A stretch of DNA of 36,589 bases from Kofleriaceae bacterium. Its GTDB lineage: Bacteria > Myxococcota_A > Polyangia > Haliangiales > Haliangiaceae. Shown here piece by piece: positions 4,400-36,589 of the stretch. Position 1 is the first letter of the stretch, and every line of letters starts with the position of its first letter. Below the pieces are notes generated by a model, which was given only the letters and a program-made list of their open reading frames with translations, had not been told where the DNA came from and did not search any database. The position numbers and the translations under genes were made by a program. The stretch covers positions 1 to 36,589 of the forward strand of contig DAIRFU010000003.1 in assembly GCA_036794935.1 (NCBI GenBank), read 5' to 3'.

Positions 4400-5710
<1,311 letters not shown>

Positions 5711-11766: not shown

Positions 11767-13488
11767 CTATGCGCCGACCGGCGCGAGCCACTGAACGAGG
11801 CGGTTGTCGGTGCTCACCGACTGCATCGGCAGGCGGAACGCGGGCGCCACCGCGCGCGTGGGGCAGGCGCCGGTCTGGGCCTCCGCGGCCGTGCACAGCC
11901 CCGTGCCGAGCACCGGGCGGTCCGGATAGAACGGCGTCGCCCACAGCTGGATCGTGCCGGTGCCCAGCTCGCCGAACGCGCGGTCGGACTCGAATGTGAC
12001 GTAGAACATGCGCTCGCCGCCGGTGGTCAGGGAGAGCGGCGCGAAACGCGCGTGGACATCGAGGTCAGGCGAGTCGTCGGTGAGCTGGACCGGCGTCGTG
12101 CTGCCATCGGCCTTCGCGATCCAGATCGAGGCCTTGGTCTCGAGCGTGCCCCAGCCGGTCGCGCGCGTGAACGCGATCCATTGACCATCGGGCGACCACG
12201 CCGGGGCGTAGGCCGACACGCCGGGGACGAGCGGCATGATCGCGTGCGCCGCGCCGAACGAGATCGTCGCCGCGGCGAACGGGCGGACCTCGATGGTGCC
12301 GCCGAGCGTCGGCGCGTTGCCCGTCGACAGCACGCTCGCGAGCGAGTGGCCATCGCGCGACAGCTGTGCGTCGAACATCGCGTAGCCGGATGCGGGCTCG
12401 AGCTTGGCGAGCGTCGCGCCGGCGTCCGTGATCACGTGGAGGTTGCCGTCGCGCGACGTGACGAGCGTCGAGCTGGCCGCGGTGAACGTCGCGGAGTCCC
12501 AGGTCTGGCCGGGGTCGGTGACCGTGTGCGACGCGATCTCGTAGATCGCGGCGTGCGTGCCCGAGGCGACCGCGAATCGCGAGCCGTCGCGCGACAGCGC
12601 GCAACCCATGCACGCCGCCGGGACCGGCCCGACGAGCGGCGACATCATCGCGTCCCAGGTCGCGGGCGACACGACGGGCGCCGCGCCGAGCATCGGCTGC
12701 GCGGCATCGTAGCGGGCGATGCCGCCGGCACTCATCACGTACAAGCCGCCGACGAGTGGCTGCTCGGTGACCTGCAGCAACCGCGGCAGGCTCCTGCAGG
12801 CGAGCTTCGGGTTGTCCTCGACGAGGCCGCTGACGCGCAGCTCGATCGACTCGTGCTGGCCGGCGAGGCGCGTCCAGTCCTCGGCGGCGAGCCGCGCGAA
12901 CGCGGACGGCACGCTGCCACGCCGGGTGTAGATCCGGGTCTCGAGGTACGTCGTCGCGAGCGACACCTCGAACAGGTCGTCGCGCGCGTCGGCCCACTGG
13001 ACATCGAGCGCGCCGAGGTTTTGCGGCAGCACGACGCCGTCGGCCGGGTACGAGATCGCGGGCGCACACGAGGTGTCGGCCATCGCGCGCTCAAACGTCA
13101 GGGCGGCGTCTACCGGCGCCGCGACGTAGCGCAGGTCGCGCGCGAACACCGTGAGGTCGGCCTGGGCGCGCAGCGCGCCGTAGGTGGCGGTCACCTGCAT
13201 CGGGCCGAGCACGTCGCCGCCGAGGCTCAGCGTGTCCGCCGACCACGAGCCGGCGCGGCGATCGGCGAGCGCGAACGCGGTCTCGGCGGTGACGTCGCGG
13301 GCGACGCCGTCGCTGTCGATCAGGGTCGCCCGGAACGTCTGCACGACCGGGACGCCGTCGACGACGGTCATCGCGAGCCGCGCGGGCTCGAGCTGGAGCT
13401 GGACCGGCGTCGCGTCCGGTCGGGGCTCGATGCATCCGACCAGCCCACACAGTGCGATGCCGAAGATTTTCGTTGGCCGCATGACCAC
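11767..13488 (-). CDS. Lipoprotein with a TolB-like beta-propeller C-terminal region
   Basis: 573-aa ORF. The likely start is the ATG at 13482 (MRPTKIFGIALCGLVGC, lipobox). Blade-like motifs recur: SRDGSRFAVAS, SRDGNLHVI, SRDGHSLASV and WSPDGQWIAFTRA (PD40/TolB-type). Confidence 0.78.
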   Translation of the reverse strand: MVMRPTKIFGIALCGLVGCIEPRPDATPVQLQLEPARLAMTVVDGVPVVQTFRATLIDSDGVARDVTAETAFALADRRAGSWSADTLSLGGDVLGPMQVTATYGALRAQADLTVFARDLRYVAAPVDAALTFERAMADTSCAPAISYPADGVVLPQNLGALDVQWADARDDLFEVSLATTYLETRIYTRRGSVPSAFARLAAEDWTRLAGQHESIELRVSGLVEDNPKLACRSLPRLLQVTEQPLVGGLYVMSAGGIARYDAAQPMLGAAPVVSPATWDAMMSPLVGPVPAACMGCALSRDGSRFAVASGTHAAIYEIASHTVTDPGQTWDSATFTAASSTLVTSRDGNLHVITDAGATLAKLEPASGYAMFDAQLSRDGHSLASVLSTGNAPTLGGTIEVRPFAAATISFGAAHAIMPLVPGVSAYAPAWSPDGQWIAFTRATGWGTLETKASIWIAKADGSTTPVQLTDDSPDLDVHARFAPLSLTTGGERMFYVTFESDRAFGELGTGTIQLWATPFYPDRPVLGTGLCTAAEAQTGACPTRAVAPAFRLPMQSVSTDNRLVQWLAPVGA

Positions 13489-13517
13489 CGCATCGGCCGG
13501 ATACGAAAGCTTGTTAT

Positions 13518-14456
13518 GTGGCGAAGAGTGGGAGTCCGCGCCGTGGCATGCTGGATACGATGTCGACGAAGGGTGACCCCAGCGGCATGGTCGTGTATCC
13601 GAAGCTGCCCGTCCCGGCGCCGAACCGCGCCAGCGACCCCAAGCTCAAGGCAAGCCGCGACGCCGCGTACAGCAAGCCGAAGATCGCCGCGGCGATCGGA
13701 CTCGTCGCGCTGATCGGCGGCGCGCTCGGCTTCTTGCTCGCGCCCGACAAGGCGGAGGAGGCCGCACAGGCCAAGAAGGTGGCGGCGGCGTCGCAGACGG
13801 CCGCGAAGGTCGAGAAGGACCGCGCCGACGGGATGGCGAAGCAGGTCGAGGTCCTGAAGAAAGATAACGACGAGCTCGAGAAGCAGCTCTCCGTCATGAC
13901 CGCGAAGGCCGGCGAGATGGAGAAGAAGGCGCAGGCCGCGAACGAGACCGCGCAGAAGAAGCTGTCCGCTGCGATCGACACCGCGACGGGCGAGGTGTCG
14001 ACCGAGGGCGAGGAGATCCACCTCAAGCTCGTCGACAAGGTGCTGTTCGCGATCGGCGACGATCAGCTGACCGACAAGGGCAAGACCGTGCTCGACAAGG
14101 TCGCCAAGGCGCTGAAGGACATCCCGGACAAGCAGATCTGGGTCCAGGGCCACACCGACGACACGCCGATCGTCGCGCCCGCGAAGCTGAAGGAGGCGAA
14201 GAAGAAGAAGAAGGGCAAGCCGGCCCCCGAGGAGCCGGCCGTGCGCTTCGCCTCGAACTGGGAGCTGTCGGCGGCGCGCGCGCTGCAGGTCGTCCACTAC
14301 CTCCAGGACCACGGCAAGATCGATCCGACCAAGCTCGCGGCGCTCGCGTTCGGCGAGTACCGGCCGGTCTCGAAGCGCAACAAGGCGGCGAACCGCCGGA
14401 TCGAGATCGTGCTGTATCCGCACCGCGCCGTGATCGAGCGGCGCAAGAAGCGCTGA
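13518..14456 (+). CDS. OmpA/MotB-family peptidoglycan-binding protein with a TM anchor and a coiled-coil
   Basis: 312-aa ORF with a TM helix (IAAAIGLVALIGGALGFLLA) and a Lys/Glu/Ala-rich coiled-coil. The OmpA-like domain reads LFAIGDDQLTDKGKTVLDKVAKAL...VQGHTDDTPI...NWELSAARALQV...NRRIEIVLYP. A Lys-rich insert (KEAKKKKKGKPAPEEP) sits inside this domain. The start is uncertain; several Met codons lie in the first 25 codons. Confidence 0.85.
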   Translation: MAKSGSPRRGMLDTMSTKGDPSGMVVYPKLPVPAPNRASDPKLKASRDAAYSKPKIAAAIGLVALIGGALGFLLAPDKAEEAAQAKKVAAASQTAAKVEKDRADGMAKQVEVLKKDNDELEKQLSVMTAKAGEMEKKAQAANETAQKKLSAAIDTATGEVSTEGEEIHLKLVDKVLFAIGDDQLTDKGKTVLDKVAKALKDIPDKQIWVQGHTDDTPIVAPAKLKEAKKKKKGKPAPEEPAVRFASNWELSAARALQVVHYLQDHGKIDPTKLAALAFGEYRPVSKRNKAANRRIEIVLYPHRAVIERRKKR

Positions 14457-14467
14457 ACGTCAGCGCT
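14449..14467. terminator. Perfect 8-bp inverted repeat with a 3-nt loop that contains the stop codons of both convergent genes; possible bidirectional hairpin
   Basis: The sequence is AGCGCTGA-ACG-TCAGCGCT. The TGA at 14454-14456 ends the + strand gene and TCA at 14460-14462 is the TGA of the - strand gene. There is no U-tract, so terminator function is uncertain. Confidence 0.25.
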
Positions 14468-15245
14468 GGCGCTCGACGAAGCTGACCAGGTCGCTATCGG
14501 CCGCGTGCTCGAGCGCGTCGAGATCGCTGGCGCCATCGACGTGGCCGCGCGCGAACACGAGGAGCGGCATCCGCTCGCCGTCCGCGTCCGACCGCAGCTC
14601 GCGTGCGATGTCCGGAACGCCCTCGCTCTTGAGCTCGAGCAGGATCGCGCGCGGACGCAGTGCCCGGGCCAGGCGCGAGAGCTGGCCGAGCGCGCGCGTC
14701 ATCGATACGACCGTGAAGCCGCGCTCGCTGAGCATGACGTCGAGCTGCTGGAGCCGCTTGCGATCGTGCTCGACGATCAGCACGACCCCGCGATCGACGG
14801 GCTCTTGCAGCGGCTCGCTCGGGCTCGCGATGTACGGCCCGTGCGAGAGCCGGTCGGCATCGCGCGAGCGATACACCGCGAGCGCGACCTTGTTGAGCAC
14901 GTCGTCAGCGTCGAAGGGCTTCTCGACGCCCTCGCTGGCGCCGATCGAGGCGAGATTGATCTCGAGCCCGTGCACCGCGATCATGATCAGGACCGGCCCG
15001 TCCTTGTAGACCGCGTCGTTGCGGAGCGCCTGGAGAAACTGCCGGCCGTTCATGCCGGGCATCATGAGGTCGAGCAAGATCGCGTCGGGCCGCGCCGCGT
15101 GGACCTTGTCGAGCGCGTCCTCGCCGTCGATCGCGACGTCCACGACGTAGCCGTCCTCGGCCAGGATCTGGGCGAGCGTGTCGCGGACCATCGGTTCGTC
15201 GTCGACGACCAACACGCGCCCGCCTTTCGAGGCAGCTCCCGACAT
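14460..15245 (-). CDS. Response regulator with one canonical REC and one degenerate (pseudo-)receiver domain, no output domain
   Basis: 261 aa. REC1 reads VLVVDDEPMVR...ILLDLMMPGMNG...EKPF. The second domain reads VLIVEHDRKR...AILLELKSEG...LLVFA and has Glu at the expected phospho-acceptor position. Confidence 0.85.
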   Translation of the reverse strand: MSGAASKGGRVLVVDDEPMVRDTLAQILAEDGYVVDVAIDGEDALDKVHAARPDAILLDLMMPGMNGRQFLQALRNDAVYKDGPVLIMIAVHGLEINLASIGASEGVEKPFDADDVLNKVALAVYRSRDADRLSHGPYIASPSEPLQEPVDRGVVLIVEHDRKRLQQLDVMLSERGFTVVSMTRALGQLSRLARALRPRAILLELKSEGVPDIARELRSDADGERMPLLVFARGHVDGASDLDALEHAADSDLVSFVERQR

Positions 15246-15297
15246 TCCGAGTTCACGGAGCGTACCACCCGTATTGGCTCCGAGGTACGATTGCGCG

Positions 15298-15768
15298 ATG
15301 TCGACGGCACCTCCGGTGGCCCGTGCCTACGACGCGTTGCGGGCGAGCGTGCTGCAGCGCTTGCTCGACATGCGCGCCACACTCGATCCATCGCTCGCGC
15401 GCGTGGACGAGGCGACCGCGCGCGCTCAGATCGGCGCCGTGCTCGATCACCTCGGCAACTTCATCGCGACCGGTGACCTCGGCATGCACCGCGCGTTCCT
15501 CCACACGTTTCTCGCGATGCGCGCCGCCGAGGCGCAGGGCCCGGCCCAGGTGCTCGCGATGCTGGTCGCGATTGGCGATACCGCGGCGCAGGTCGCGCAG
15601 GAGGAAGGCAGCGGCCCCGAGGGTGCCGAGCTGACGCTGCTGCTCACGCGGGTCACCGCCTCGACCGCGCGAGCGGTCAACGACCTGATCGCCGAGGAGC
15701 TCGAGCGGCGGCTCGCGCAATGGGCCGAGCTGTCGACGAAGGAGCGCGAGGGAGTGCCGCCGTCATGA
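15298..15768 (+). CDS. Hypothetical all-helical protein, first gene of the PP2C operon
   Basis: The start is taken at the ATG at 15298 (MSTAPPVARAYDALRASVLQRLL...), inside track ORF 15178..15768. Its stop overlaps the next start (ATGA at 15765-15768). Confidence 0.6.
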   Translation: MSTAPPVARAYDALRASVLQRLLDMRATLDPSLARVDEATARAQIGAVLDHLGNFIATGDLGMHRAFLHTFLAMRAAEAQGPAQVLAMLVAIGDTAAQVAQEEGSGPEGAELTLLLTRVTASTARAVNDLIAEELERRLAQWAELSTKEREGVPPS

Positions 15769-17654
15769 GCCAGCCGCTGCCGTCCAGCCGCCTGCGCGTC
15801 GCGGGCGACACCCACGTCGGCAAGGTCCGCACGACGAACGAAGACGCGATGATCTGTGACCCGGTGCGTGGGCTCTATGTCGTGCTCGACGGCATGGGCG
15901 GCGCGAACGCGGGAGATGTCGCGTCGCAGACCGCGCGCGACGCGATCCGTGACTTCGTGATCCAGCGCCGGCTCACGATGGAGCCCAAGGCGCTGCTCGA
16001 GGCGGCGATCCAGCACGGCTCGGCCGCGGTGTGGTCGGCGGCGCAGAATTCACCCGACCACCACGGCATGGGCACGACGGTGGTCGCGTGTCTGGTCGTC
16101 GATGCCGCCGGGCGGAGTGAATCCGCCACGCGCCCGCTCGGGCCCCAGCGCGTGATCATCGGTCACGTCGGCGACAGCCGCGCCTACGTGCTGCGCCAGG
16201 GCCGCCTCCAGCCGCTGACGCGCGACCACACGATCGTCGAGGAGCTCGTCGATCGCGGCGTGCTGTCGGCGGACGACGCCGAGCGCCACCCGTACAAGAA
16301 CGTGCTGTCGCGCAACCTCGGCGCGAAGCCCGACACGCGTGTCGACCTCGTCGAGCTCGAGCTCGAGCTCGGCGACCGGTTGCTGCTCTGCTCCGACGGC
16401 CTCTACGGCTACGCGTCGACCGAGGGCATGCAGTACCTGCTCGGCTCCGGTGATCCGCCCGACGCGGTCGCTCGCGATCTGATCGACCTCGCGCTGCGCG
16501 GCGGTGGCGGCGACAACGTCTCCGCGATCGTGATCGAGGCGCCGCAGGCCGCACCGACGTCGACCCAGGTCGTCCGCACCCACGGCGCGGTCGCGTGGTG
16601 GCAGAAGCGCACCCGGTTCTTCCAGCTCGCGAAGGAGCGCGGCATCACGAAGAACCCGATCTGCCGCGGCCTCGATCCCGACGAGGCGCTCGATCTGGTC
16701 GCGATGTCGCTGTGTCAGGCGATCTTTCACGACCTCGAGAAGTCGACCGGCGTCAACGTGTGGACGTTCGCGCAGAACGTCGCCGGCGGCTGGTTCGAGC
16801 GCGGCGGCGAATGGTCGGCGGTGCGCGGGCTGATGGATAGCCTCGCGTTCGCGGCGCGGGTCATCGTCGACGAGATCCGGACCGCGGACGCCAAGCTCGG
16901 CTTCTTGCTCGACGTCGCGGTGTCGCGCGCGCTCGTGGTCGCGGAGCTCGCACTCGGTGGCCTGCTCGCCGAGCGGCTGCGGCAGGTCGACGCCGATCTG
17001 ATCCAGATCCACAACACGATCCACGAGACGCTCGAGGGCGAGCCGACCGACGGCCCCGACACCGACGGGCGGTTCACCGAGCAGGCGACGATCCCGTTTC
17101 TGCGTCCGGATCGCCCGGTCACCCAGCCCGGCATCAGCACCGAGTTGATCGGCGCGATCGAGAAGACGCTGACGATCGCGCGGGCGCGCACCTCGCCCCG
17201 CGCCGAGATGGTCAAGCAGATCCTGTCGGCGCTGGAGTCGATCGCGATCGACGTCACCGGCAACTTCGCGTCGGCCGTGCTCGCCGCGCGCGAGATCTAC
17301 GGCACGCGCGGCCTCGACGACACCGGTGTCATGTCCGTGTTCGACGCGCTCGACGCCACCCGCATCGTGACCGCGTCGAGCGTGCACCAGACCTCGCTGC
17401 CCGACGCGATGCGCGCGAAGGTGCTGCGCGCGATCAGCTCGGCGCACCAGCGCCTCGTCGGTGCGATGACCGGCCTCGTGCTCGAGGCCGTCGCCCCGTA
17501 CTCGCGCAAGCTCGAGGAGGCGCAGCAGGTGACGGCCGAGCTGCGCGACAAGGTCGCGCGGGCCGAGCGCAACCGGGCCGAGCTCGAGAGCAAGCTCGCC
17601 GCGACCATCGATCAGAGCCTGCCGTGGGAGAAGCGCGGCGTGACGGAGTGGTGA
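15765..17654 (+). CDS. PP2C-family Ser/Thr protein phosphatase with a C-terminal extension of about 380 aa of unknown function
   Basis: The start is taken at the ATG at 15765 (MSQPLPSSRLRVAGDTHVGKVRTTNEDA). PP2C motifs are present: VLDGMGGANAGDVAS, GMGTTVV, GHVGDSRAYVL, LTRDHT, LLLCSDGL and GGGDNVSAIVIE. The remainder is helical and ends in a coiled-coil (AELRDKVARAERNRAELESKL). Confidence 0.9.
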   Translation: MSQPLPSSRLRVAGDTHVGKVRTTNEDAMICDPVRGLYVVLDGMGGANAGDVASQTARDAIRDFVIQRRLTMEPKALLEAAIQHGSAAVWSAAQNSPDHHGMGTTVVACLVVDAAGRSESATRPLGPQRVIIGHVGDSRAYVLRQGRLQPLTRDHTIVEELVDRGVLSADDAERHPYKNVLSRNLGAKPDTRVDLVELELELGDRLLLCSDGLYGYASTEGMQYLLGSGDPPDAVARDLIDLALRGGGGDNVSAIVIEAPQAAPTSTQVVRTHGAVAWWQKRTRFFQLAKERGITKNPICRGLDPDEALDLVAMSLCQAIFHDLEKSTGVNVWTFAQNVAGGWFERGGEWSAVRGLMDSLAFAARVIVDEIRTADAKLGFLLDVAVSRALVVAELALGGLLAERLRQVDADLIQIHNTIHETLEGEPTDGPDTDGRFTEQATIPFLRPDRPVTQPGISTELIGAIEKTLTIARARTSPRAEMVKQILSALESIAIDVTGNFASAVLAAREIYGTRGLDDTGVMSVFDALDATRIVTASSVHQTSLPDAMRAKVLRAISSAHQRLVGAMTGLVLEAVAPYSRKLEEAQQVTAELRDKVARAERNRAELESKLAATIDQSLPWEKRGVTEW

Positions 17655-23917: not shown

Positions 23918-26767
<2,850 letters not shown>

Positions 26768-26817
26768 GGCCGAACGGGCGGGGATTTACCGGCACGTCTC
26801 CTGCTGAGGCGCCGGCC

Positions 26818-29061
26818 ATGCGGATCGTGCTCCTTGCGTTGCTCCTGGCGGCGTGTGAAGGACCTGCAGGCCCGCAGGGTGAGGATGGAACCGACGGCGC
26901 CGATGGCGCGGACGGCAGCCACGGCGATCCGGGGCCCACGGGCGAGCCCGGCACCGTACCGCCCGTGCCGTGGCTGGTCGCCGACCAGGTCCAGATCGCG
27001 GTCACGGATCTGACCGTCGATGGCAGCGGCGCGCACGTCGCGTTCACGCTGAAGGACAAGGACGGCAAGCCGCTCGATCGCACCGGCAACCTGACCGACG
27101 GCAAGGTCACCGTCAGCTTCATTCTCGCCCAGCTCGGCACCGCGAGCGACGGCAGCGCCGCGCAGTACACGGCCTACACCAGGCGCAGCGTCAACGCGAC
27201 GCCGCCGTATCCGACCGCCACCGCCACCCAGGCGACGACCGAGGGCACCGAGTCGCGCTTCGAGGTCGTCGACGTGACCCAGGGTAGCTACCGCTACGAC
27301 TTCGAGGCACCGACCACCGGCTACGACGCGACCAGGACCCAGAGCGTGCTGGCCGTCGCGTCGCGCACCCTCGACGGCGTGCAGGCCTGGGACCGCGACC
27401 TGTTCCACGTCGGCACGGTTCGCCACGAAGAGGTGACCGACACGAGCTGCGGCAGCTGCCACGGCTCGTTCGCCGCGCACGGTGGCCGGTACACGAAGCC
27501 CGAGCACTGCGTGCTGTGCCACACCGCGCAGAGCTCGGATCCGGAGAGCGGCAACACCGTCGACTTCAAGGTGATGATCCACAAGCTCCACCGCGGCGAG
27601 AACCTGCCGAGCTTCGTCGCGGACTCGAGCAAGCCCTACGCGATCATCGGCTACGGCAACTCCGTGCACGACTTCTCGACGGTCGGCTTCCCCGGTCCGT
27701 CGACGGACGTCGCGGTCAACATCCGGCGCTGCGAGACGTGCCACGACGGCGCCCAGCAGACGAACTGGTACGCGCGGCCGAGCACGGCCGCCTGCACGTC
27801 GTGCCACGACACGACGGTGTTCACCGCGAACCCGGCGCCGCCACTCGTCGCGCACCAGGGTGGTGTCGATCCGGCGCTCGTCAACGACGGCACGTGCATC
27901 GTGTGTCACGGGCAGACCGCGGGCCCGGCGCCCGTGCCGGCCGCGCACTACACGGGTCTGCTCGATCCGAGCACGGGCACGATGCGCGTCGACATCCAGT
28001 CGGTGACGAACACCGCACCCGGCCAGCTGCCGACCGTTCGCTTCAAGGTGACCGTCGACGGCGCGCCGCGCGATATCCAGGCGTCGCCGCTATCGGCACT
28101 GACCGCGACGATCGCCGGTCCGACGACCGACTTCCGCGAGTTCTGGCAGGCGCGCGTGCAGGGCTCGGGTGCGGTCGGCACGCTGACAGCGGTCGATGCC
28201 GCGGCCGGCATCTTCGACTACACGTTCCCCGCGGCGACGGTCGCGAAGCCGACGCCGTGCACGGAGTCGACGGCCGCCCGCGAGTGCAAGATTCCCGACG
28301 ACGCGACCGGTAGCTACCAGATCGCGTTCGAGGCGAGCTGGACCCCGGCCGGTCAGCAGCGCATCGTCGCGCCGCCGCCGATCGCCGCGTTCGCGGTGAC
28401 CGACACGACCGCCGTGCCTCGCCGCACGATCGTCGCCAACGCGAGCTGCAACGGCTGCCACGTCGACCTCCAGTTCCACGGCGGTGGCCGCAAGGACGTC
28501 CAGTACTGCGTGATGTGCCACAACCCCAGCAACGCGAACGACGAGCGCATCTCTCGGCTCGAGGGCTCGGCGGTGTTCGCCGAGAGCGTCGACCTCCGCG
28601 TGATGGCGCACAAGATCCACATGGGCGAGGAGCTGTCGCAGCCGTACATCCTCGGCGGCAACCCGGCGCCGAGCACGTCGAATCCGCTCGGCGCCCCGGA
28701 GGACTTCTCCGAGCTCCGCTACCCGCGCGCGCGTACGGCGTGCAACGCCTGCCACACCGGCACGACGTGGCAGCTGCCGATGGCGGCGTCGGCGAAGTAC
28801 CTGCCGAGCACGACCGTCGAGCTGACCTGCAGCGAGGATCCGAGCGCGGACAGCGATAGCTACTGCACCGGCGCGTTCTGGGCGATCACGAAGACGACCA
28901 AGATCGCGCCGGAGAGCGCGGTGTGCACGAGCTGCCACGATGCGCCGTACACCGCGGCGCACGCGCTGCTCAACACCACCACGGGTGGCGTCGAGGCGTG
29001 CACGACGTGCCACGGCCCCGGCAAGGAGCTCGACGTCTCGCGCTACCACGGCACCCCGTGA
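26818..29061 (+). CDS. Decaheme c-type cytochrome lipoprotein with MtrC/OmcA-like four-domain layout (beta domain, 5 hemes, beta domain with CX8C, 5 hemes)
   Basis: The start is taken at the ATG at 26818 (MRIVLLALLLAAC, lipobox), inside track ORF 26686..29061. The CXXCH motifs are CGSCH, CVLCH, CETCH, CTSCH and CIVCH, then a heme-free segment of about 150 aa containing CTESTAAREC, then CNGCH, CVMCH, CNACH, CTSCH and CTTCH. Confidence 0.85.
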   Translation: MRIVLLALLLAACEGPAGPQGEDGTDGADGADGSHGDPGPTGEPGTVPPVPWLVADQVQIAVTDLTVDGSGAHVAFTLKDKDGKPLDRTGNLTDGKVTVSFILAQLGTASDGSAAQYTAYTRRSVNATPPYPTATATQATTEGTESRFEVVDVTQGSYRYDFEAPTTGYDATRTQSVLAVASRTLDGVQAWDRDLFHVGTVRHEEVTDTSCGSCHGSFAAHGGRYTKPEHCVLCHTAQSSDPESGNTVDFKVMIHKLHRGENLPSFVADSSKPYAIIGYGNSVHDFSTVGFPGPSTDVAVNIRRCETCHDGAQQTNWYARPSTAACTSCHDTTVFTANPAPPLVAHQGGVDPALVNDGTCIVCHGQTAGPAPVPAAHYTGLLDPSTGTMRVDIQSVTNTAPGQLPTVRFKVTVDGAPRDIQASPLSALTATIAGPTTDFREFWQARVQGSGAVGTLTAVDAAAGIFDYTFPAATVAKPTPCTESTAARECKIPDDATGSYQIAFEASWTPAGQQRIVAPPPIAAFAVTDTTAVPRRTIVANASCNGCHVDLQFHGGGRKDVQYCVMCHNPSNANDERISRLEGSAVFAESVDLRVMAHKIHMGEELSQPYILGGNPAPSTSNPLGAPEDFSELRYPRARTACNACHTGTTWQLPMAASAKYLPSTTVELTCSEDPSADSDSYCTGAFWAITKTTKIAPESAVCTSCHDAPYTAAHALLNTTTGGVEACTTCHGPGKELDVSRYHGTP
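26860..26952 (+). repeat. Collagen-like Gly-X-Y tract (10 triplets) starting one residue (Glu) after the lipobox Cys of the decaheme cytochrome
   Basis: The tract reads GPA GPQ GED GTD GAD GAD GSH GDP GPT GEP G, read directly from codons 15-45 of the gene. Confidence 0.85.
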
Positions 29062-29064
29062 ACC

Positions 29065-30157
29065 GTGAGGGCAATGCTCGTCATGCTCGCGCTCACTGGC
29101 TGCTCCGAGGAGCGTCTGCTGTCCGGACCGTGCGATGGCTGCGTCGTGACGCTTCACGACCAGGGCATCCTCGATCCGGGGAGCGACGCGTTTCACGGGA
29201 CGCTGCTCGCTCGCACGAACTGGGGCTTCGCGCGCTGCGCGGAGTGCCATGGCGAGGACTTCAGCGGCGGCACGAGCGGCGTGTCGTGCGTGAGCTGTCA
29301 CCAGCAGGGGCCGACCGCGTGCGTGACGTGTCACCGCGACGAGTCGCCGTCGCACGCGGTGCACCGCGCGGCGAGCCTGACGTGCGCGGAGTGCCATCGC
29401 GTGCCCGAGCGCTGGGACGCACCGGGCCACATCGTCGACGACGCGCTCCCCGCCGAGGTCACGTTCGGTGCACTCGCCGCGGCGACGCTCGATCCGGACG
29501 ATCGCGAGGGACCACCGGTGTTCGACGGCGCTCGCTGCAGCAACGTCTATTGTCATGGCGCGGTCCTCCACGCCGGTGGTGGCAGCGACACGCAGCCGAC
29601 GTGGGACGCGACCGCGACCGGCACGTGCGGCAGCTGTCACGCGGCACCACCGCCGAGCCACGCGCGTAGCGACTGCGCGACCTGTCATCCGCAGAGCGCG
29701 CCGCACATCGACGGTGCATTGCAGATCGGCACGACGAACGACTGCTCGGGGTGCCACGGCAGCGCGGCATCGCCGGCCCCGCCGTTCGATCTCGAAGGCA
29801 ACCAGTTCACGACCGCGATCGGCGTCGGCGCGCATCAGGCCCACCTCCAGGCACCGTCGGGATTGCGTGGGCCCATTCCGTGCGAGACGTGCCACGCGGT
29901 GCCGGCAACCGTGACCGCGGTCGGCCACCTCGACGCGTCGCCCGCCGAGGTCAACCCGGAGCTCGGCTGGGATCGCGAGAGCCAGACCTGCACGACGTGG
30001 TGCCACGGCGTGGCGCGGCCGAGCTGGACGTCGCACGGCGAGGTCGTGTGTGGCTCGTGCCACGGCGCACCGCCAGCGGATGCGAACCACGACGCCCAGA
30101 TGACGATCGCGACGTGCGTGAGCTGCCACGTCGGGACCCACATGGACGGAGTGCTCG

Positions 30158-30168
<11 letters not shown>
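29065..30168 (+). CDS. 12-heme c-type cytochrome lipoprotein with an internally duplicated CxxxxCH...CXXCH-type module
   Basis: 367 aa with a lipobox (LALTGC). It has ten CXXCH motifs (CAECH x2, CVSCH x2, CVTCH, CGSCH x2, CATCH, CSGCH, CETCH), plus CSNVYCH (CX4CH) and CTTWCH (CX3CH). The start is the GTG at 29065 or the ATG at 29074. Confidence 0.85.
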
Positions 30169-30774
<606 letters not shown>

Positions 30775-30778
<4 letters not shown>

Positions 30779-31065
30779 GGCTGCGGCTCACGGCGAGCGT
30801 GGGACTTCACCTCTCGGCGGTGCTCACGTTGATCGCGCTCGCGCTGATGGTGTGGTCGGTGGTCGAGCCGACGCCGCTGCCGGTGATGGTCGCGATGACC
30901 GTCGGCCAGGCGCTCGGTACGACCGCGTTCGGCATCTTCGTCTGGGTCGTGTTCGCGGACCTCACGCGCCAGCGCGCCGAGCGCAAGTCGCTCGAGCGGA
31001 TCTCGCTCGTCGACATCGAGGTGCCGAAGCGGGGGCCCGCCGGCGAGCCGAAAGAGCACGCGTGA
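30775..31065 (+). CDS. Small 2-TM membrane protein
   Basis: This is the C-terminal part of track ORF 30223..31065. The ATG at 30775 overlaps the previous stop (ATGA). The 96-aa product begins MRLRLTASVGLHLSAVLTLIALALMVWSVV...TTAFGIFVWVVFADL and has a charged tail. Confidence 0.6.
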
Positions 31066-32231
31066 TGAAGCGCGCGCTCGCGGCGATGCTCGCGATCGCG
31101 GCGTCTCGAGGTGCCTCTCCGGCGGGCGCCGATCCGCTGCGCCTGCGCGCCGACGCGCTCGCGACCACGCAGTCGCCCGCGGGCCTGCTCGTGCTCGAGG
31201 CGGACGGCAAGGCGAGCGCGACCGCGAACGCGGAGGCGATCGTATGGACCGCGAACGACTCGGCCGACGTGCTCGTGATCGCGCTGCGCGCACGCACGAA
31301 GGACGGTCGCGTCGGCGGCCGCGTCGGCCGGTTCGTCGCCTCGCTCGGTGCGCTGCGTCCGGTGCACGTCGACGGGCTCGCCGGGCGCATCCGGCTCGGC
31401 AAGCGCTTCGACATCGAGGCGTACGGCGGCATGCCTGTGGTCGCGTTCTCCGAGGGTACGAGCGCGCGTGCGTGGGACTGGGTGCTCGGCGGTCGCGTCG
31501 CGCGCCGGCTCGGGGACTACGGCTCGGTCGGCGTCGCGATGCTCGAGCAGCGCGATCACGGGCAGCTGGTGACCCGCGAGCTCGGTGTCGATGGCGGCCT
31601 CGCGCTCGGCAAGCACCACGACGCCGAGGCGCGCGTCGCGTACGATCTCGCGAACCCGGGCCTCGCCGACGTCCATGGCAGCGTGATCCGCCGCAAGGGC
31701 ACGTTGCGCGCCGAGGCGTACGGCGGCTACCGCGCGGCGTCGCACCTGCTCCCGGCGACGTCGCTGTTCACCGTGCTCGGCGACACGCCGTCGGCGCGCG
31801 GCGGCGTGCTCGTCAGCAGCAAGGTCGCGCCCCGGCTCGAGCTGTCGAGCGATCTGGGCCTGCGCGGCGCCGCCGACGAGCTCGGCGCGATGATCGTCGT
31901 GCGTGCGCGGCTCGCGCTCGACGATACGTTCGCGAGCGCGCTCACCGGCGAGCTGCGCCGCGACGGCGTCGGTGACGACGCGTGGACCGGCGCGCGCGGT
32001 GCCGCTCGCATCGCGCTGCCGCACGAGCTCGTCGCGAGCACCGAGCTCGAGCTCGTCGTGCCCGATACCGATCGCGGCCGTGGTCGCGTGTGGCCGTGGG
32101 CACTCGCCGCGCTCGGCTGGCAACGCGGTCCGTGGCAAGCGGCGGTCGCGGGCGAGGCGTCGGCGTCGGCGGAGTACACGCGGCGGCTCGACGTGCTGTT
32201 CCAGCTGGGCCGTCAGTGGAGCACGCCGTGA
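31065..32231 (+). CDS. Putative outer-membrane beta-barrel protein (candidate porin of the cytochrome conduit)
   Basis: This is the C-terminal part of track ORF 30852..32231. The ATG at 31065 overlaps the previous TGA (TGATG). The 388-aa product has a signal peptide (MKRALAAMLAIAASRGASPAGA) and no Cys or heme motifs. It has many short amphipathic alternating segments (FDIEAYGG, WDWVLGGRVARRL, GSVGVAMLEQR, AEARVAYDL, LRAEAYGGYR) separated by Gly/Asp turns. Confidence 0.55.
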   Translation: MKRALAAMLAIAASRGASPAGADPLRLRADALATTQSPAGLLVLEADGKASATANAEAIVWTANDSADVLVIALRARTKDGRVGGRVGRFVASLGALRPVHVDGLAGRIRLGKRFDIEAYGGMPVVAFSEGTSARAWDWVLGGRVARRLGDYGSVGVAMLEQRDHGQLVTRELGVDGGLALGKHHDAEARVAYDLANPGLADVHGSVIRRKGTLRAEAYGGYRAASHLLPATSLFTVLGDTPSARGGVLVSSKVAPRLELSSDLGLRGAADELGAMIVVRARLALDDTFASALTGELRRDGVGDDAWTGARGAARIALPHELVASTELELVVPDTDRGRGRVWPWALAALGWQRGPWQAAVAGEASASAEYTRRLDVLFQLGRQWSTP

Positions 32232-33259
32232 CGAAGCGCCGCGTCGCAGTCGCGCTCGCGCTCGTCGGGCTCGCCGCGTGTGCGGGCGTGCTCGGTCTTC
32301 GCCCGCGGGAGCCGAGCCCGTTTCCGCATCGCAAGCACGTGCTGAACGGTGTTGCATGCACGACGTGCCACGTCGGCATCGACACCGCGAGCGGTGACGC
32401 GGAGCTGCACCTGCCCGACGAGGCGTCGTGCCTGTCGTGTCATGACAAGCCGCACGATCCGAAGCCGTGCTTTCAGTGCCACTCGCGGCCGACCGCGCGC
32501 GCCGAGCTGATCGAGGCCCGCGAACATCTGCGCTTCGATCACGCGCGCCACGTACCGCGCACGCACGGCAACTGCATGCGGTGCCACGTCGGCGTGGGCG
32601 AGGGCGACGACCGGCTGCGCCCGGCGATGGCGACCTGCTTCAAGTGCCACGACGGCGAGCGGGACATGCGCCGGTGCGACAGCTGCCACCGAAGCCTCGA
32701 GGCCGGCACCGACATGCCGGCGAGTCACCTCGCGCACGATGGTGACTGGCTGCGCGATCACGGTGCGCGCGCCGCGTCGTCGGCGGATCTCTGCCAGACC
32801 TGCCACACCGAGCGCTCGTGCGCGACCTGTCACGGCGTCACGGTCCCGGTGCTGCCGGCGACCCTGCGGTTCGCCGATCCGTTCGCCGCGAGCGTGCACC
32901 GCGCCGGCTTCGCGTCGCGCCACAGCCTCGAGGCGAAGGCCGATCCGGGCGCGTGTCAGACCTGCCATCAGCCCGATCGCTGCGCGGCGTGCCACGTCGA
33001 GAGGGGCGTCGCCGGTCTCGATCGCGCGAGTCCGCACCCGCCGGGCTGGGTCGGCGTGACCGAGAACCTGCACGGGCGCGAGGCGCGTCGCGATCCGGCG
33101 TCGTGCGCGAGCTGTCACGGCGGTGCCGGCGAGCAGCTCTGCGTGACATGTCACAAGGTCGGCGGCATCGGCGGCAGCCCGCACCCACCGGGCTGGTCGA
33201 GCAAGCGATCGCTCGGCGCGATGCCGTGTCGGCTGTGTCACACGCTGGGGTCGCGATGA
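32228..33259 (+). CDS. 13-heme c-type cytochrome lipoprotein (c7/c3-like and paired-CXXCH segments)
   Basis: This is the C-terminal part of track ORF 31982..33259. A GTG at 32228 overlaps the previous stop (GTGA), and a GTG at 32216 is an alternative start. The lipobox is LVGLAAC. There are thirteen CXXCH motifs, including FPHRKH...CTTCH, FDHARH...CMRCH and the closely paired CQTCHTERSCATCH and CQTCHQPDRCAACH. Confidence 0.85.
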   Translation: MTKRRVAVALALVGLAACAGVLGLRPREPSPFPHRKHVLNGVACTTCHVGIDTASGDAELHLPDEASCLSCHDKPHDPKPCFQCHSRPTARAELIEAREHLRFDHARHVPRTHGNCMRCHVGVGEGDDRLRPAMATCFKCHDGERDMRRCDSCHRSLEAGTDMPASHLAHDGDWLRDHGARAASSADLCQTCHTERSCATCHGVTVPVLPATLRFADPFAASVHRAGFASRHSLEAKADPGACQTCHQPDRCAACHVERGVAGLDRASPHPPGWVGVTENLHGREARRDPASCASCHGGAGEQLCVTCHKVGGIGGSPHPPGWSSKRSLGAMPCRLCHTLGSR

Positions 33260-34896
33260 CGAGGCGCCTCGGGCTCGTCGCGTTCGCGCTGATGCTGCTC
33301 GGGGCCATCGGCGGCTTCGTCGCGTGCGGCATGTCGGAGCGGCCGCGCGCGTCGGAGCACGTGCCGGTCGCATACCGCCAGGCGCGCCTCGCGATCGGTC
33401 ACGTCAAGCACGTCGGCAAGGTCGCGTGCGCGGACTGCCACGGGCAGGCGTTCGAGAAGCCGGCCGCCGAGCTGTGCACGAGCTGCCACGCGAAGACGTC
33501 GTCGCTGCACCACGACGATCCGACGACGACCGACACGCCACCCGCGTGCATCGACTGCCACGGCTACACCGACGCGACGGCCACGCCGTGGAACTGCATG
33601 CGCTGCCACGACGAGAAACGCGGCCGCCACGCGGCGGTCGGCGCGCACGCCGAGGAGGACTGCAGCACGTGTCACCAGCCGCACGGCGAGCCGGCGACGC
33701 GGGCGCAAGGCTGCGAGAGCTGTCACCGCGGCCGCGAGACCACGCACGCGGGCCTGCACGGCTGCCTCGACTGCCACGCGATGCACGAGAGCAAGCTGCC
33801 GAACCTCGCCGGCCGCGAGGGCGGGGCGGCGGCCACCGGCTGCGAGCGCTGCCACGCGCAGCAGAAGGGCACGCTGCACGTCGACGCCCGCGCGCTATCG
33901 ACGGGCCACGACGCGTGCACGAGCTGCCACCAGCCGCATGACTTCGAGCCGCGCGCGTGCCTCGATTGCCACCGCGATCGCCCCGAGGGCAAGCAGCTGA
34001 TCGCGCCGGCCAGGCACCAGTGCGCGAGCTGCCACGACCAGCACGACATCGCCGAGCCGCGCGCGTGCGCGACGTGTCACCGCGACGAGGCGCAAGCGAT
34101 CGAGCACCCGGCCACGCCGCAGGGCGCGTGCATCGGCTGTCACCGCCCGCACCAGCCGCAGGCCGCGTGCGAGTCGTGCCACGCGCAGATCCCGCGCCAC
34201 TCCGCAGAGGCCCGGTGCCTCGACTGCCACGTGCCGCACGCCGGCAAGCCGAAGCCGAACGCCGCGTTCTGTGGCGCCTGCCATGCCGACAACGCCGCGC
34301 GCTCGGCGGGTCACGGCGAGTGCACCACGTGCCACGAGAACGCGGCGCACACGCCGAGCAAGCAGACACCCGCGTGCGCGACCTGCCACACCGACAAGGC
34401 GCGCGACATCGGCAAGCATGCACGCTGCGCGAGCTGCCACGCCGACGTGCACGCACCGGCCGCGCAGCCGCCCGCCTGCGCGACATGCCACGAGCGACAG
34501 GCGAGCTCGGTGCCCGCGGGCCACGCCGACTGCGCGAGCTGCCACACCCCGCACGCGCCGGGCACGACCCCGGCGTGCGCGACGTGCCACGCGAGCGAGG
34601 CGAAGACCCGCCACGGTGCGCTCGGCTGCGCGACCTGCCACCGCCCGCATGGCCCGAACGGCATCGCGAAGCCGCCGTCGTGCGTGACGTGTCACGTCGC
34701 GCGGACCGGACCGGCACCTGGTCCGCCGCCCCGGAAGCTCCACGCGGCGAAGGGGCACGCCGACTGCGCCACGTGCCACGTCTCGCACGAAGCCCGGCCG
34801 CGCGACGACCGCGCGAGCTGCCTCGCGTGCCACCAGGACCAGGTCCGCCACGAGCCGGCCGCCGCTCGCTGCGCGACCTGCCACCCGTTCCGTTAA
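33256..34896 (+). CDS. 27-heme c-type cytochrome lipoprotein built from tandem diheme units
   Basis: This is the C-terminal part of track ORF 32818..34896. The ATG at 33256 overlaps the previous stop (ATGA). The 546-aa product has a signal/lipobox (LLGAIGGFVAC). I counted 27 CXXCH motifs by hand, about one per 20 residues. Confidence 0.88.
   Translation: MTRRLGLVAFALMLLGAIGGFVACGMSERPRASEHVPVAYRQARLAIGHVKHVGKVACADCHGQAFEKPAAELCTSCHAKTSSLHHDDPTTTDTPPACIDCHGYTDATATPWNCMRCHDEKRGRHAAVGAHAEEDCSTCHQPHGEPATRAQGCESCHRGRETTHAGLHGCLDCHAMHESKLPNLAGREGGAAATGCERCHAQQKGTLHVDARALSTGHDACTSCHQPHDFEPRACLDCHRDRPEGKQLIAPARHQCASCHDQHDIAEPRACATCHRDEAQAIEHPATPQGACIGCHRPHQPQAACESCHAQIPRHSAEARCLDCHVPHAGKPKPNAAFCGACHADNAARSAGHGECTTCHENAAHTPSKQTPACATCHTDKARDIGKHARCASCHADVHAPAAQPPACATCHERQASSVPAGHADCASCHTPHAPGTTPACATCHASEAKTRHGALGCATCHRPHGPNGIAKPPSCVTCHVARTGPAPGPPPRKLHAAKGHADCATCHVSHEARPRDDRASCLACHQDQVRHEPAAARCATCHPFR
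33427..34884 (+). repeat. Protein-level tandem array of CXXCH-xxH-(6-10 aa)-CXXCH-(7-12 aa incl. His) units
   Basis: Example units are CSTCHQPHGEPATRAQGCESCHRGRETTHAGLHG, CTSCHQPHDFEPRACLDCHRDRPEGKQLIAPARHQ, CASCHDQHDIAEPRACATCHRDEAQAIEHP, CASCHTPHAPGTTPACATCHASEAKTRHGALG and CATCHVSHEARPRDDRASCLACHQDQVRHEP. At the DNA level TGCGCGAC(C/G/A)TGCCAC recurs. Confidence 0.8.
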
Positions 34897-35004
34897 GCAA
34901 CGCGTGCCGGCAACTGGAGCTGCCGGTCCGCGATTTGCCACGTGGGTTTTCGCACCCCAAGCGGCGCTACGCGCTGGCGCCCGCGTTGCAGTTGCCGCGA
35001 GCCG

Positions 35005-36159
35005 ATGCGGACGTGGTGCCTGGTGATAGCGATGATGGCCGGCTGTGCCTTCGCCGGCGGTGATGCGAACGACGAGTCGTTCGTCGTCGGTGGTCAGCCC
35101 GAGAGCGGCTACCCGCCGGTCGGCTACCTCCACAACACGCTCTACCCCGACTCCAGGACGTGGTGCGGCGTCACGCTGATCGCGCCGACCGTCGTGATCA
35201 CCGCGTCGCACTGCGTGGATGGGGTCGCGGCGGCAAACCTCGAGGTCGGCTTCGGCCTGGTCGACAGCTCGCCGCTCGTCGCGGTCGCCGCGGTCCACAT
35301 GCACCCGAGCTACGTCTACCGGCAGGAGGGCGACTTCCTGCCGTGGGACGACGTCGCGGTGCTCGAGCTCGCCCAGGCCGTCACGGCCGTCCCGCCGGCG
35401 ACGCTCGCCCGCGCGCAGACCGGTGGCTGCACCGCGCGCTACGTCGGCTACGGCCGCAACGTGCCCGGCGACGGCCACGTGACCGAGGGCTACGACGGCG
35501 AGCGGCGCAGCGCCACGATCTGCATCGACGCCGAGAACCCGCACGAGCTCTACGTCCACGGCGACGACGGCGGCCTGTGCTGGGGCGACAGCGGCGGCCC
35601 GCTGCTCGCCGATGGCACCACGCACGTGTTCGGCGTGCTGTCGCGCCACGCGCCGCGCATCGACTCGCACTACTCGTGCGAGACGGGCAACCGGATGATC
35701 TTCACGGCCGCCGCGACCTATCGCGACTTCATCACGCAGTGGGCGCCCGACGCGTTCGAGGCCGAGCCCGCGGCGACCGCGAGCGTGGGCTGGTGCAACG
35801 TGCAGTGGCCCGAGACGCTGGCCGCCCAGCCGTACGCGACGACCGAGCCGATCTACGGCCGCGTGTGGGCCGAGGGCGTGACGCCCGGCCGTGGCCAGGG
35901 CGCGGGCGTGACCGCGGAGGTCGGCTTCGGCCCGGCCGACTCGGCGCCCGACACCGCCGCCGGCTGGATCTGGTACGCCGCGCACTACAACGTCGACGTC
36001 GACGGTCTCGCCGCCGGCGATCTCGCGAACGACGAGTATATGGGGACCCTGTTCCCCTATGCCGCCGGCACGTACTCGCTCGCGTACCGGTTCTCGGCCG
36101 ACGGCGGCCAGACGTGGAAGACCTGCAGCAGCGGCTCGAAGCTGACCGTCGCGCCGTGA
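35005..36159 (+). CDS. Trypsin-like (S1) serine protease lipoprotein with an uncharacterised C-terminal domain of about 130 aa
   Basis: The start is taken at the ATG at 35005 (MRTWCLVIAMMAGC, lipobox), inside track ORF 34942..36159. S1 features are present: VVGG, the catalytic triad contexts TASHC, DDVAVLEL and GDSGGPL. The C-terminal domain reads WCNVQWPETL...IYGRVWAEGVT...YSLAYRFSADGGQTWKTC. Confidence 0.88.
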   Translation: MRTWCLVIAMMAGCAFAGGDANDESFVVGGQPESGYPPVGYLHNTLYPDSRTWCGVTLIAPTVVITASHCVDGVAAANLEVGFGLVDSSPLVAVAAVHMHPSYVYRQEGDFLPWDDVAVLELAQAVTAVPPATLARAQTGGCTARYVGYGRNVPGDGHVTEGYDGERRSATICIDAENPHELYVHGDDGGLCWGDSGGPLLADGTTHVFGVLSRHAPRIDSHYSCETGNRMIFTAAATYRDFITQWAPDAFEAEPAATASVGWCNVQWPETLAAQPYATTEPIYGRVWAEGVTPGRGQGAGVTAEVGFGPADSAPDTAAGWIWYAAHYNVDVDGLAAGDLANDEYMGTLFPYAAGTYSLAYRFSADGGQTWKTCSSGSKLTVAP

Positions 36160-36171
36160 TAGCAAGGACGG

Positions 36172-36589
36172 GTGCGCGCCGCCCTGATCCTCGTGCTGCT
36201 GGTCGCGCGCTCGGCATCGGCGCAGACGACCCCGTGTGATTCGCACGAGGCCGAGGAGCTGCGCGCGCACCTGACGCACGAGCAGCACCGCGCGCGCGTC
36301 TGGAACCTCGCGTGGGGCATCACGTTCACAGCGGCCGCGGTCGGCACGTTCGCGGTCGGCTACGCGAACCCGGTCCCCGAGCTGCAGGACGGCTTCTTCG
36401 TCAGCGCGGGCAAGGCCACGATCGGTGCCCTCGGCCGGTGGGTCGTGCCGCTGCGCATCGAGGTGCCGCCGGCCACCGGCGACGCGTGCGCCGACCTCGC
36501 GCTGCTGCGGCGCGCGCTCCGCAGCGCGGCCAGACGCGAGAAGGGCAACTTCTGGCTCAACCACGTCGGCGGCTTGCTCGTGAACGGAG
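36172..36589 (+). CDS. Hypothetical secreted/membrane protein, 5' part (runs off the window)
   Basis: This gene is absent from the track because it has no in-window stop. A GTG at 36172 is preceded by AAGGA. The translation is VRAALILVLLVARSASAQTTPCDSHEAEELRAHL...WNLAWGITFTAAAVGTFAVGY... with no stop to 36589 and strong third-position GC. Confidence 0.5.
   Translation, partial: MRAALILVLLVARSASAQTTPCDSHEAEELRAHLTHEQHRARVWNLAWGITFTAAAVGTFAVGYANPVPELQDGFFVSAGKATIGALGRWVVPLRIEVPPATGDACADLALLRRALRSAARREKGNFWLNHVGGLLVNG

Follow-up and report, generated by a model that had tools for sequence, protein, structure and literature searches.

We analysed a stretch of 36,589 nucleotides from a Kofleriaceae bacterium of the Myxococcota (assembly GCA_036794935.1, contig DAIRFU010000003.1, positions 1 to 36,589), hereafter called the window; the G+C content of these 36.6 kb is ~70%. 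Between positions 26818 and 34896 (8.1 kb) seven genes follow each other on the + strand, here named g1 to g7. They encode an OmcA/MtrC-family decaheme lipoprotein, a 12-heme lipoprotein, a NapC/NirT-family membrane tetraheme cytochrome, a small protein with two hydrophobic helices, a predicted outer-membrane beta-barrel, a 13-heme lipoprotein and a 27-heme lipoprotein. Porin-cytochrome conduits serve Gram-negative bacteria in the exchange of electrons with minerals, humic matter, electrodes and partner cells, and the sequence-only reading of this DNA had put the cluster forward as a candidate for such a conduit. Our analysis supports this candidacy by the family matches of g1, g2 and g3, by a barrel model of g5 and by the absence of a catalytic reductase. 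With moderate confidence we propose that the operon encodes a path for electrons through the entire cell envelope, leading from the quinol pool to the cell surface.

The seven reading frames are uninterrupted on translation and tightly packed. The first gene, g1 (26818-29061), stops with TGA and is followed after a gap of 3 nucleotides by the GTG start of g2 (29065-30168), whose end overlaps the start of g3 (30158-30778) by 11 nucleotides. The next junctions consist of ATGA at 30775 (g3/g4; g4 at 30775-31065), TGATG at 31063-31067 (g4/g5; g5 at 31065-32231), GTGA at 32228 (g5/g6; g6 at 32228-33259) and ATGA at 33256 (g6/g7; g7 at 33256-34896). Translation of the genes thus confirms the coupled arrangement described before, in which one 3-nucleotide gap is followed by start/stop overlaps at the other five junctions. 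The start codons of g1, g3, g4, g5 and g6 agree with those in independent public gene calls. Across relatives the median gap per junction lies between -17.5 and +5 nucleotides (53-81 loci per junction). The locus is most likely a single operon.

Within the window, CXXCH motifs are confined to this cluster. There are 10 CXXCH motifs in g1, 10 in g2, three in g3, 13 in g6 and 27 in g7. Variant motifs add CSNVYCH (CX4CH) and CTTWCH (CX3CH) in g2 and CASEGCH (CX4CH) in g3; g1, g6 and g7 have no variants. Neither g4 nor g5 contains a CXXCH or variant motif, and g5 is free of Cys altogether. Counting motifs in the translations therefore yields 63 CXXCH and 3 CX3-4CH, i.e. 66 sites, the same number as had been counted by hand. 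In a six-frame translation of the window, all 63 CXXCH matches fall within 26818-34896 and none outside, and the 16 other genes of the window (7686 residues) contain no CXXCH. When the residues of the five cytochromes were shuffled, a mean of 0.6 CXXCH remained, with a maximum of 4. The heme counts are kept down to 40% identity among homologues. CXXCK, reported as absent, was indeed found in none of the g1-g7 translations.

Central to the proposed conduit is g5, encoding a Cys-free protein of 388 residues with a signal peptide. Searches of its sequence against Pfam, NCBIfam and PDB found nothing, a PDB profile search being empty even at E <= 10, and the MtrB/PioB models PF11854 and TIGR03509 matched neither g5 nor ten distant members of its family. 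Among distant relatives the sole Pfam match is a weak one to LptD in one member (E 3e-4). AlphaFold2, supplied with an alignment of 90 sequences, returned a model of 22 antiparallel strands with short connections (predicted local distance difference test score (pLDDT) 85.8, predicted template modelling score (pTM) 0.75). This alignment combined a set of 42 sequences with a ~40%-identical Polyangiaceae branch; an earlier model from the 42 sequences only (57-100% identity) was discarded (pLDDT 66, template modelling (TM) scores ~0.3). A Foldseek search of PDB with the 90-sequence model yielded 210 matches (E <= 0.001); all of those listed are outer-membrane barrels. The top matches are the 24-strand ushers FimD/PapC (E 5e-8, TM-score up to 0.53); further matches include the 22-strand transporter PqqU, LptD and the OccK/OprD channels. 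The best matches are large barrels with a protein in the lumen (FimD/PapC, LptD, TonB-dependent transporters). Along the predicted strands the alternation of hydrophobic and polar residues amounts to 2.24, compared to 1.23 +/- 0.19 in shuffled sequences. The impression of a beta-barrel gained from the letters is hereby borne out, and according to the model g5 is a plug-less 22-strand outer-membrane barrel of an unannotated family. With its 388 residues the protein is too short to hold a plug domain as well. As an empty barrel of 22 strands would form a very wide open pore, a partner protein is expected to fill g5.

The predicted occupant is g6, a 13-heme lipoprotein of 343 residues with an ActA-like N-terminal module. 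Thirteen sites (or 12 + 1) are present in 74 of 75 g6 homologues. Residues 30-193 align with the pentaheme ActA (6LOD, E 2e-7; 6F0K, E 6e-6; also 8K9E), and no named NCBIfam or Pfam family scored above threshold. The lipobox Cys is found in 74/75 homologues and also in a distant branch of the family. Because this Cys is invariant over distant branches, a lipobox is likelier than an inner-membrane anchor; we therefore rejected the view of g6 as an ActA homologue with an uncleaved inner-membrane anchor.

The association of g5 with g6 is strict. At 81 of 81 scorable junctions g6 lies directly after g5, with a median gap of -4 nucleotides, and wherever flanking DNA was available the g5 family never occurred without an adjacent 13-heme gene. 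In a more distant branch of barrels, whose identity to the query sequence is ~30-36%, a 13-heme lipoprotein of ~350 residues likewise overlaps the barrel gene by 4 nucleotides. The surroundings of this distant pair vary. It stands alone at one locus (L085), is accompanied by MtrC-like and CxxxxCH cytochromes next to a Rieske/cytochrome b complex at another (L084, 11030-17260), and at a third (L083, 10290-16840) adjoins a Qrc/ACIII-like gene set composed of a QrcA-like multiheme, a QrcB-like molybdopterin-type, a QrcC-like FeS and an NrfD-type membrane subunit. These Qrc-like subunits all score under the equivalog cut-offs (QrcA-like multiheme 70.6 bits vs 180). At L084 and L083 these neighbours stand where g3-g4 would be expected, and they suggest alternative couplings to the quinone pool. 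Since barrel and 13-heme protein are kept together while their neighbours vary, we regard the pair as the invariant unit of the system, with exchangeable quinone modules and outer cytochromes.

Directly downstream, g7 encodes a lipoprotein of 546 residues with 27 hemes, predicted to form a long heme wire. Its heme sites are spaced about 17 residues apart, and 32 additional His are sufficient for bis-His ligation at every heme. Homologues in 63 loci contain 24-27 motifs; a lipobox-type signal peptide is predicted, with the Cys conserved in 48/63 homologues. Its Pfam matches are limited to generic families, namely Cytochrome_C7, c3 and paired-CXXCH, and the c7-type triheme domain TIGR04257, which is repeated in GSU1996-like 'nanowire' cytochromes, was not detected on g7 at E <= 0.01. 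The likeness to known proteins is weak and concerns the nine-heme cytochrome 19HC (E 1e-6), MtrA (6R2Q_A, E 2e-4) and HmcA, together with a weak match to the selenite/tellurite-operon cytochrome ExtS (E 0.007). The cluster had been described as devoid of an MtrA-like soluble decaheme. In agreement with this, the MtrA/DmsE-family model TIGR03508 (cut-off 192.2) gave 34.5 bits for g7, 21 bits for g1 and no match for g6.

The quinol side of the system is represented by g3 and g4. g3 encodes a membrane tetraheme protein of 206 residues and is a predicted inner-membrane quinol dehydrogenase. Its assignment to the NapC/NirT type is upheld by PF03264 (42.2 bits vs a gathering threshold of 24.1; residues 35-189), as well as by its likeness to the structure of NrfH (2J7A_C, E 4e-4), and relatives carry the JGI annotation NapC. 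Two N-terminal hydrophobic helices precede the first heme site. The equivalog models for NapC, NrfH and TorC all remain far below their cut-offs, so g3 belongs to the family and yet is none of the named orthologues. Across 75 homologues the motif CGSCHVM is kept; in NrfH this type of motif, CXXCHxM, characterises the heme on the quinol side. Beside three CXXCH motifs, 69 of 74 homologues have CX4CH (CASxGCH) as a putative fourth heme site, a motif to which heme is known to attach in other proteins. The adjoining g4 encodes 96 residues with two hydrophobic helices, a predicted membrane partner of g3. It has no family match in Pfam or NCBIfam and is conserved beside g3 in 73 loci, including those where the g3-g4 pair is inverted.

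At the opposite end of the predicted electron path, g1 encodes a decaheme lipoprotein of 747 residues that is predicted to act as terminal cytochrome at the cell surface. Its MtrC/OmcA nature, suspected from the layout, is confirmed by TIGR03507 with 373.3 bits vs a cut-off of 209.3, residues 69-744 aligning to model positions 5-672 of 672. The Pfam family MtrC-MtrF_II-IV_dom matches in two stretches (175 bits), and among solved structures OmcA comes nearest (4LMH, E 3e-22). The CXXCH motifs are split 5 + 5 between residues 211-360 and 544-728, which corresponds to two pentaheme domains, and 50/51 homologues have 10 CXXCH. In g1 the Cys of the lipobox LAAC (residue 13) is invariant in 52/52 sequences; a lipobox-type signal peptide is predicted, with the Cys conserved in 48/51 homologues. 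Right after this Cys, residues 14-45 (26857-26952) form a collagen-like Gly-X-Y run, CEGPAGPQGEDG..., which is matched by the Pfam family Collagen (E 1e-4). Such a tether of 4-14 triplets is present in 49 of 51 homologues, and Shewanella oneidensis OmcA has a short stretch of its own, GSDGKDGEDGKPG, that aligns at this place. The run could be a stalk or trimerisation element of the surface cytochrome. In the second pentaheme domain a non-heme pair, C671-X11-C683 (28828-28866), is invariant in 52/52 sequences and is probably a structural disulfide. A further pair, C481-X8-C490 (28258-28287), lies within an insertion of only 4/52 clade members. A conserved CX8C disulfide in domain III is a feature of the Shewanella clade (PMC9973256). 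Present in g1 of the window, this pair is absent from 48/52 members of the g1 clade and was rejected as a family signature.

g2 encodes a 12-heme lipoprotein of 367 residues with a CxxxxCH/CxxCH domain, a predicted accessory outer cytochrome. The CxxxxCH...CXXCH module had been noticed in the letters, and TIGR01904 (49 bits vs a cut-off of 27) and the Pfam family GSu_C4xC__C2xCH both match it. Homologues keep the motif count at 10-11 + 2, and 40/54 of them have the lipobox (LTGC). Atypical heme motifs are described as a hallmark of the outer-membrane cytochromes of porin-cytochrome (Pcc) systems (PMC4245776).

The cluster is widespread within one lineage. The g5 family comprises 420 representatives at 50% identity and is present in 197 species-level genomes; at 90% identity there are >710 clusters in the Kofleriaceae branch and >1356 in the Polyangiaceae branch. 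Among the best 80 g5 genome loci nearly all are from Myxococcota (Kofleriaceae, Haliangiales, Polyangiaceae and Nannocystineae), and the genomes derive from Polyangia of soil, sediment, glacier streams and sludge. Synteny was assessed over 82 loci of the Kofleriaceae and Polyangiaceae types, with the seven proteins of the cluster as tblastn queries. In the Kofleriaceae/Haliangiales-type layout g1 to g7 are collinear with the window. In the Polyangiaceae-type layout g3-g4 are inverted and divergent from g5-g6-g7, and g1 is missing; downstream and convergent lie a g2-like decaheme gene and a gene for a pentaheme lipoprotein that likewise has the collagen-like tether (for example L076, 13311-14654, - strand). 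The conserved core consists of the NapC-like g3, the 2-helix g4, the barrel g5, the 13-heme g6 and a 24-27-heme g7, and g1 and g2 are accessory. No catalytic reductase is encoded in the cluster or among the genes conserved across the 82 loci, as the sequence-only reading had stated for the cluster. Its label of a hybrid between Shewanella and Geobacter elements stands only in part. A Shewanella-like g1 and a Geobacter-like g2 are present; the combination is not unique and is better read as a modular, lineage-wide system.

Two side observations were made on these loci. Some genomes carry the whole cluster twice, each time on a separate contig (L015/L016, L010/L033, L007/L009). The copies L007 and L009 come from a metagenome-assembled genome labelled Acidobacteriota, yet they are ~60% identical to Kofleriaceae genes and have the same gene order, which could be due to mis-binning or horizontal transfer.

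Conserved elements precede the operon and were found by aligning the DNA 5' of g1 from nine loci. Two tandem palindromes, GCGCA-N5-TGCGC, are located at 26717-26731 and 26746-26760 (+). In most of 35 loci they lie at ~-100 and ~-70 relative to the g1 start, with a spacing of ~30 bp; at least one site is present in 30/35 and at least two in 24/35. As the background of a single site is high (0.65 per 220 nucleotides), the evidence lies in the conserved position and spacing. Paired upstream sites ~30 bp apart are the usual layout for sigma-54 activators, and the palindromes are putative binding sites of a transcriptional activator. A sigma-54-like -24/-12 element, CGGCACGTCTCCTGC (GG-N10-GC; 26790-26804, +), is located 27 nucleotides before the g1 start codon. 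The corresponding pattern, GGCA[CT]G followed by (C/T)(G/T)TG, is found at -27 to -44 in 28/35 loci (background 0.13 per 80 nucleotides). Loci of the Polyangiaceae type have a canonical TGGC-N7-TCTTGCA 51-82 nucleotides 5' of g3 (12/16 loci, background 0.03). These elements suggest that the operon is probably sigma-54-dependent. Two other patterns were dropped upstream of g1: the strict GG-N8-TTGC[AT] occurred in 5/35 loci only, and the loose TGG-N9-TGC matched at chance level. A scan of 26500-35300 for sigma-70 promoters and intrinsic terminators found none.

Among relatives, sigma-54 activators adjoin the cluster in L002, L084 and L085. In L002 the region 13827-16402 encodes a protoglobin-HisKA kinase and an NtrC-type sigma-54 activator, and cbb3-oxidase maturation genes (FixG/H/I-like) lie immediately 5' of the cluster. 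L083 encodes an H-NOX-type sensor, HNOB with HNOBA-HATPase, at 3219-5192. Heme-based gas sensors together with sigma-54 elements fit a redox- or oxygen-controlled expression.

The published range of Pcc systems covers porins of 18-22 strands, periplasmic partners with 5-14 hemes and atypical motifs in the outer cytochromes (PMC4245776). Compared to the Geobacter type (OmbB-OmaB-OmcB, ExtABCD), g5 with its modelled 22 strands, g6 with 13 hemes and g2 with CX3-4CH motifs fit these ranges, and a barrel gene directly followed by a multi-heme cytochrome gene is common to both, in g5-g6 with a 4-nucleotide overlap. In Anaeromyxobacter, which belongs to the same phylum as the host, a two-gene pcc consists of a porin and a 12-heme cytochrome, e.g. 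Adeh_3392 (PMC4245776), the same two-gene form as in L085. In contrast to the soluble periplasmic partner of the Geobacter barrel, g6 is a predicted lipoprotein. Moreover, the cluster encodes three components that the Geobacter Pcc lacks: a NapC-type quinol dehydrogenase of its own together with a 2-helix partner, a protein with 27 hemes, and a decaheme of the OmcA/MtrC family. The cluster resembles Pcc by published description and is no demonstrable member of the Geobacter Pcc.

With the Shewanella system MtrCAB/OmcA/CymA the cluster shares the OmcA/MtrC family of g1, including a short Gly-X-Y stretch after the lipid anchor as in OmcA, and the NapC/NirT family of g3, to which CymA belongs. 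The proposed logic is alike as well, leading from a quinol dehydrogenase via a barrel-sheathed cytochrome to a surface decaheme. The barrel of MtrB has 26 strands (PMC12133095). The cluster has no such MtrB/PioB porin, the g5 model having 22 strands, and no decaheme of the MtrA/DmsE family, so that the earlier statement that it is not a canonical mtrCAB holds for both models. Further differences are the quinol dehydrogenase encoded within the operon and heme numbers of 13 and 27 instead of 10.

Two further systems invite comparison. The N-terminus of g6 aligns with ActA of ACIII and weakly with QrcA, whereas the window contains no ActB-F or QrcB-D genes, and g6 differs from ActA/QrcA by eight extra hemes, a lipobox and a constant outer-membrane-barrel partner. 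In Desulfovibrio ferrophilus the outer-membrane cytochrome cluster DFE_0461-0465 (markers of FeGenie) is described as having several large multi-heme cytochromes, lipoproteins among them, and is implicated in extracellular electron exchange (PMC8322314). By that description it shares this make-up with the present cluster and differs in having the six-bladed beta-propeller DFE_0463 instead of a beta-barrel and no OmcA/MtrC-family member. In the literature searched we found no description of the myxobacterial cluster, only generic multi-heme counts for Myxococcota genomes.

From these parts we infer the protein locations, the placement of g6 within g5, the order of transfer, its outward direction and the acceptor as follows. 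g3 and its 2-helix partner g4 would oxidise menaquinol at the inner membrane, and the electrons would then go to the multi-heme lipoproteins at the outer membrane. There, the 13-heme g6 would fill the lumen of g5, like MtrA in MtrB or LptE in LptD, and the 27-heme g7 would add further hemes to the chain, towards the periplasm, towards the outside or both. Under low oxygen g1, on its tether, and g2 would pass the electrons on to extracellular acceptors, for example humic matter or Fe(III)/Mn(IV) oxides. MtrA with its 10 hemes spans ~8 nm; it is speculation that 13 hemes would protrude on both sides of the outer membrane and that 27 could span the periplasm. The outward (reducing) direction is favoured because of the OmcA/MtrC-type head and the gas-sensor and sigma-54 context. 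An extension of this proposal, which we put forward only tentatively and hold to be rather doubtful, sees in the cluster a third, independently assembled type of conduit beside Mtr and the Geobacter Pcc, based on a barrel family for which no annotated protein is a detectable relative. In it the 13-heme plug and the 27-heme wire, with roughly 20 residues per heme, would form one continuous insulated chain from the quinol dehydrogenase at the inner membrane to a stalked OmcA-like head.

Several observations weigh against an outward conduit, and part of them would suit the same hardware working in reverse. All four large cytochromes are predicted lipoproteins, unlike the soluble barrel-inserted cytochrome of Mtr and Pcc. 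All relatives found are metagenome-assembled genomes. In most loci the -12 half 5' of g1 reads CGTGA, which is non-canonical, and the element at 26790-26804 could alternatively be a palindromic operator, CACG-N3-CGTG; for both reasons it is a promoter only putatively. Cultured Kofleriaceae and Haliangium are aerobes, so a dedicated role in metal respiration is not obvious. The host lineages being known as aerobes would also be in keeping with an uptake of electrons from donors outside the cell, whether Fe(II) or Mn(II), minerals, reduced humics or other cells, into the quinone pool or oxidases. Inward flow has been proposed for MtoAB/PioAB with a CymA-like protein, and NapC/NirT-family proteins are reversible in principle. 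The location of the L002 cluster directly 3' of the cbb3-oxidase maturation genes, and the Qrc/ACIII-like and Rieske/cytochrome b complexes and monoheme c-type cytochromes that distant relatives adjoin, fit inward flow equally well. We nevertheless regard the reversed direction as unlikely, though as the strongest of the competing explanations. OmcA/MtrC-type decahemes are typical of the reducing Mtr systems, Mto and Pio having no MtrC, and g1 belongs to the cluster both here and in the majority of Kofleriaceae/Haliangiales loci; the window contains no marker of carbon fixation or iron oxidation.

The lipoprotein nature of the four cytochromes could also mean that they all face the periplasm. 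They would then form a network for electron storage or for the reduction of soluble substrates, to which 66 hemes would offer a large reservoir, with g5 as a substrate channel instead of a sheath. The resemblance of g5 to the substrate-specific OccK/OprD and AlgE-type channels and the weak ExtS match of g7 point in the same direction. We consider such a network improbable. A catalytic subunit, CXXCK or any other active-site motif is missing from the cluster, characterised members of the g1 family are on the cell surface, and an open, plug-less barrel of 22 strands with short loops would be a very large unregulated pore. Moreover, the 4-nucleotide coupling of g5 with g6 is strict over deep divergence, and the two can occur as a two-gene unit. 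We hold it to be very improbable that g5 has no functional link to the cytochromes and is, as some general porin or assembly factor, merely co-transcribed with them. Its sequence, unlike MtrB/PioB or any annotated family, would allow this; a 13-heme gene is, however, adjacent at every one of the scorable junctions and in the three distant-branch loci, and the family was not seen apart from such a neighbour where flanks were available. Among these readings we thus prefer the envelope-spanning conduit with outward flow.

If the tentative reading as a third type of conduit is right, much of the nominally aerobic, predatory soil Polyangia would be electroactive under the control of sigma-54 and oxygen sensors, Kofleriaceae, Haliangiales, Polyangiaceae and Nannocystineae included. 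Current marker sets rest on Shewanella, Geobacter and Desulfovibrio, and the barrel and most cytochromes described here match none of those models. As the cluster is nevertheless present in ~200 species-level genomes, myxobacterial redox cycling of iron, manganese and humic matter is probably under-counted. The cluster is a test case for the assembly of conduits from exchangeable modules, and its parts list, compact and self-contained, lends itself to structural studies and to transfer into other hosts.

In relatives with high G+C content, the genes richest in heme sites are overlooked or assigned to the wrong strand in public gene calls. In L002 the 27-heme g7 homologue (12144-13799) is called as an open reading frame of 551 residues on the wrong (-) strand, in L001 the g7 homologue (12282-13760) is called in part only, and in L083 three small antisense frames are called in place of the 13-heme g6 homologue (9377-10243). 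Heme-based surveys of such genomes will therefore under-count these proteins. In the window itself very long spurious open reading frames (up to 905 residues) lie antisense to or overlap real genes, among others at 24296-27013 (+), 28090-30321 (-) and 33895-36564 (-). Long antisense frames are a known artefact at ~70% G+C, and the spurious ones were told from real genes by their third-position G+C content.

In the loci L064-L082, which are of the Polyangiaceae type, the divergent intergenic region between g3 and g5 contains, beside the canonical sigma-54-type promoter directed at g3, a second conserved element, GGGACTTGCA, on the g5 strand. It is flanked by GCGCGC and has no GG at sigma-54 spacing.

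The genes flanking the cluster are unrelated to it. Downstream lies a gene for a trypsin-like protease, and the remainder of the window consists of ordinary regulatory and housekeeping genes. Upstream and divergent lies a gene for an Hsp70-like protein of 949 residues (23918-26767, - strand) with a C-terminal DUF3731 'DnaK-related' domain (E 2e-86). Its longest open reading frame extends across the conserved elements that precede g1. The protein's IGIDLGTT motif suggests a true start near 26706, which would leave an intergenic region of ~110 nucleotides. The close relative L004 keeps the same Hsp70-like neighbour gene.

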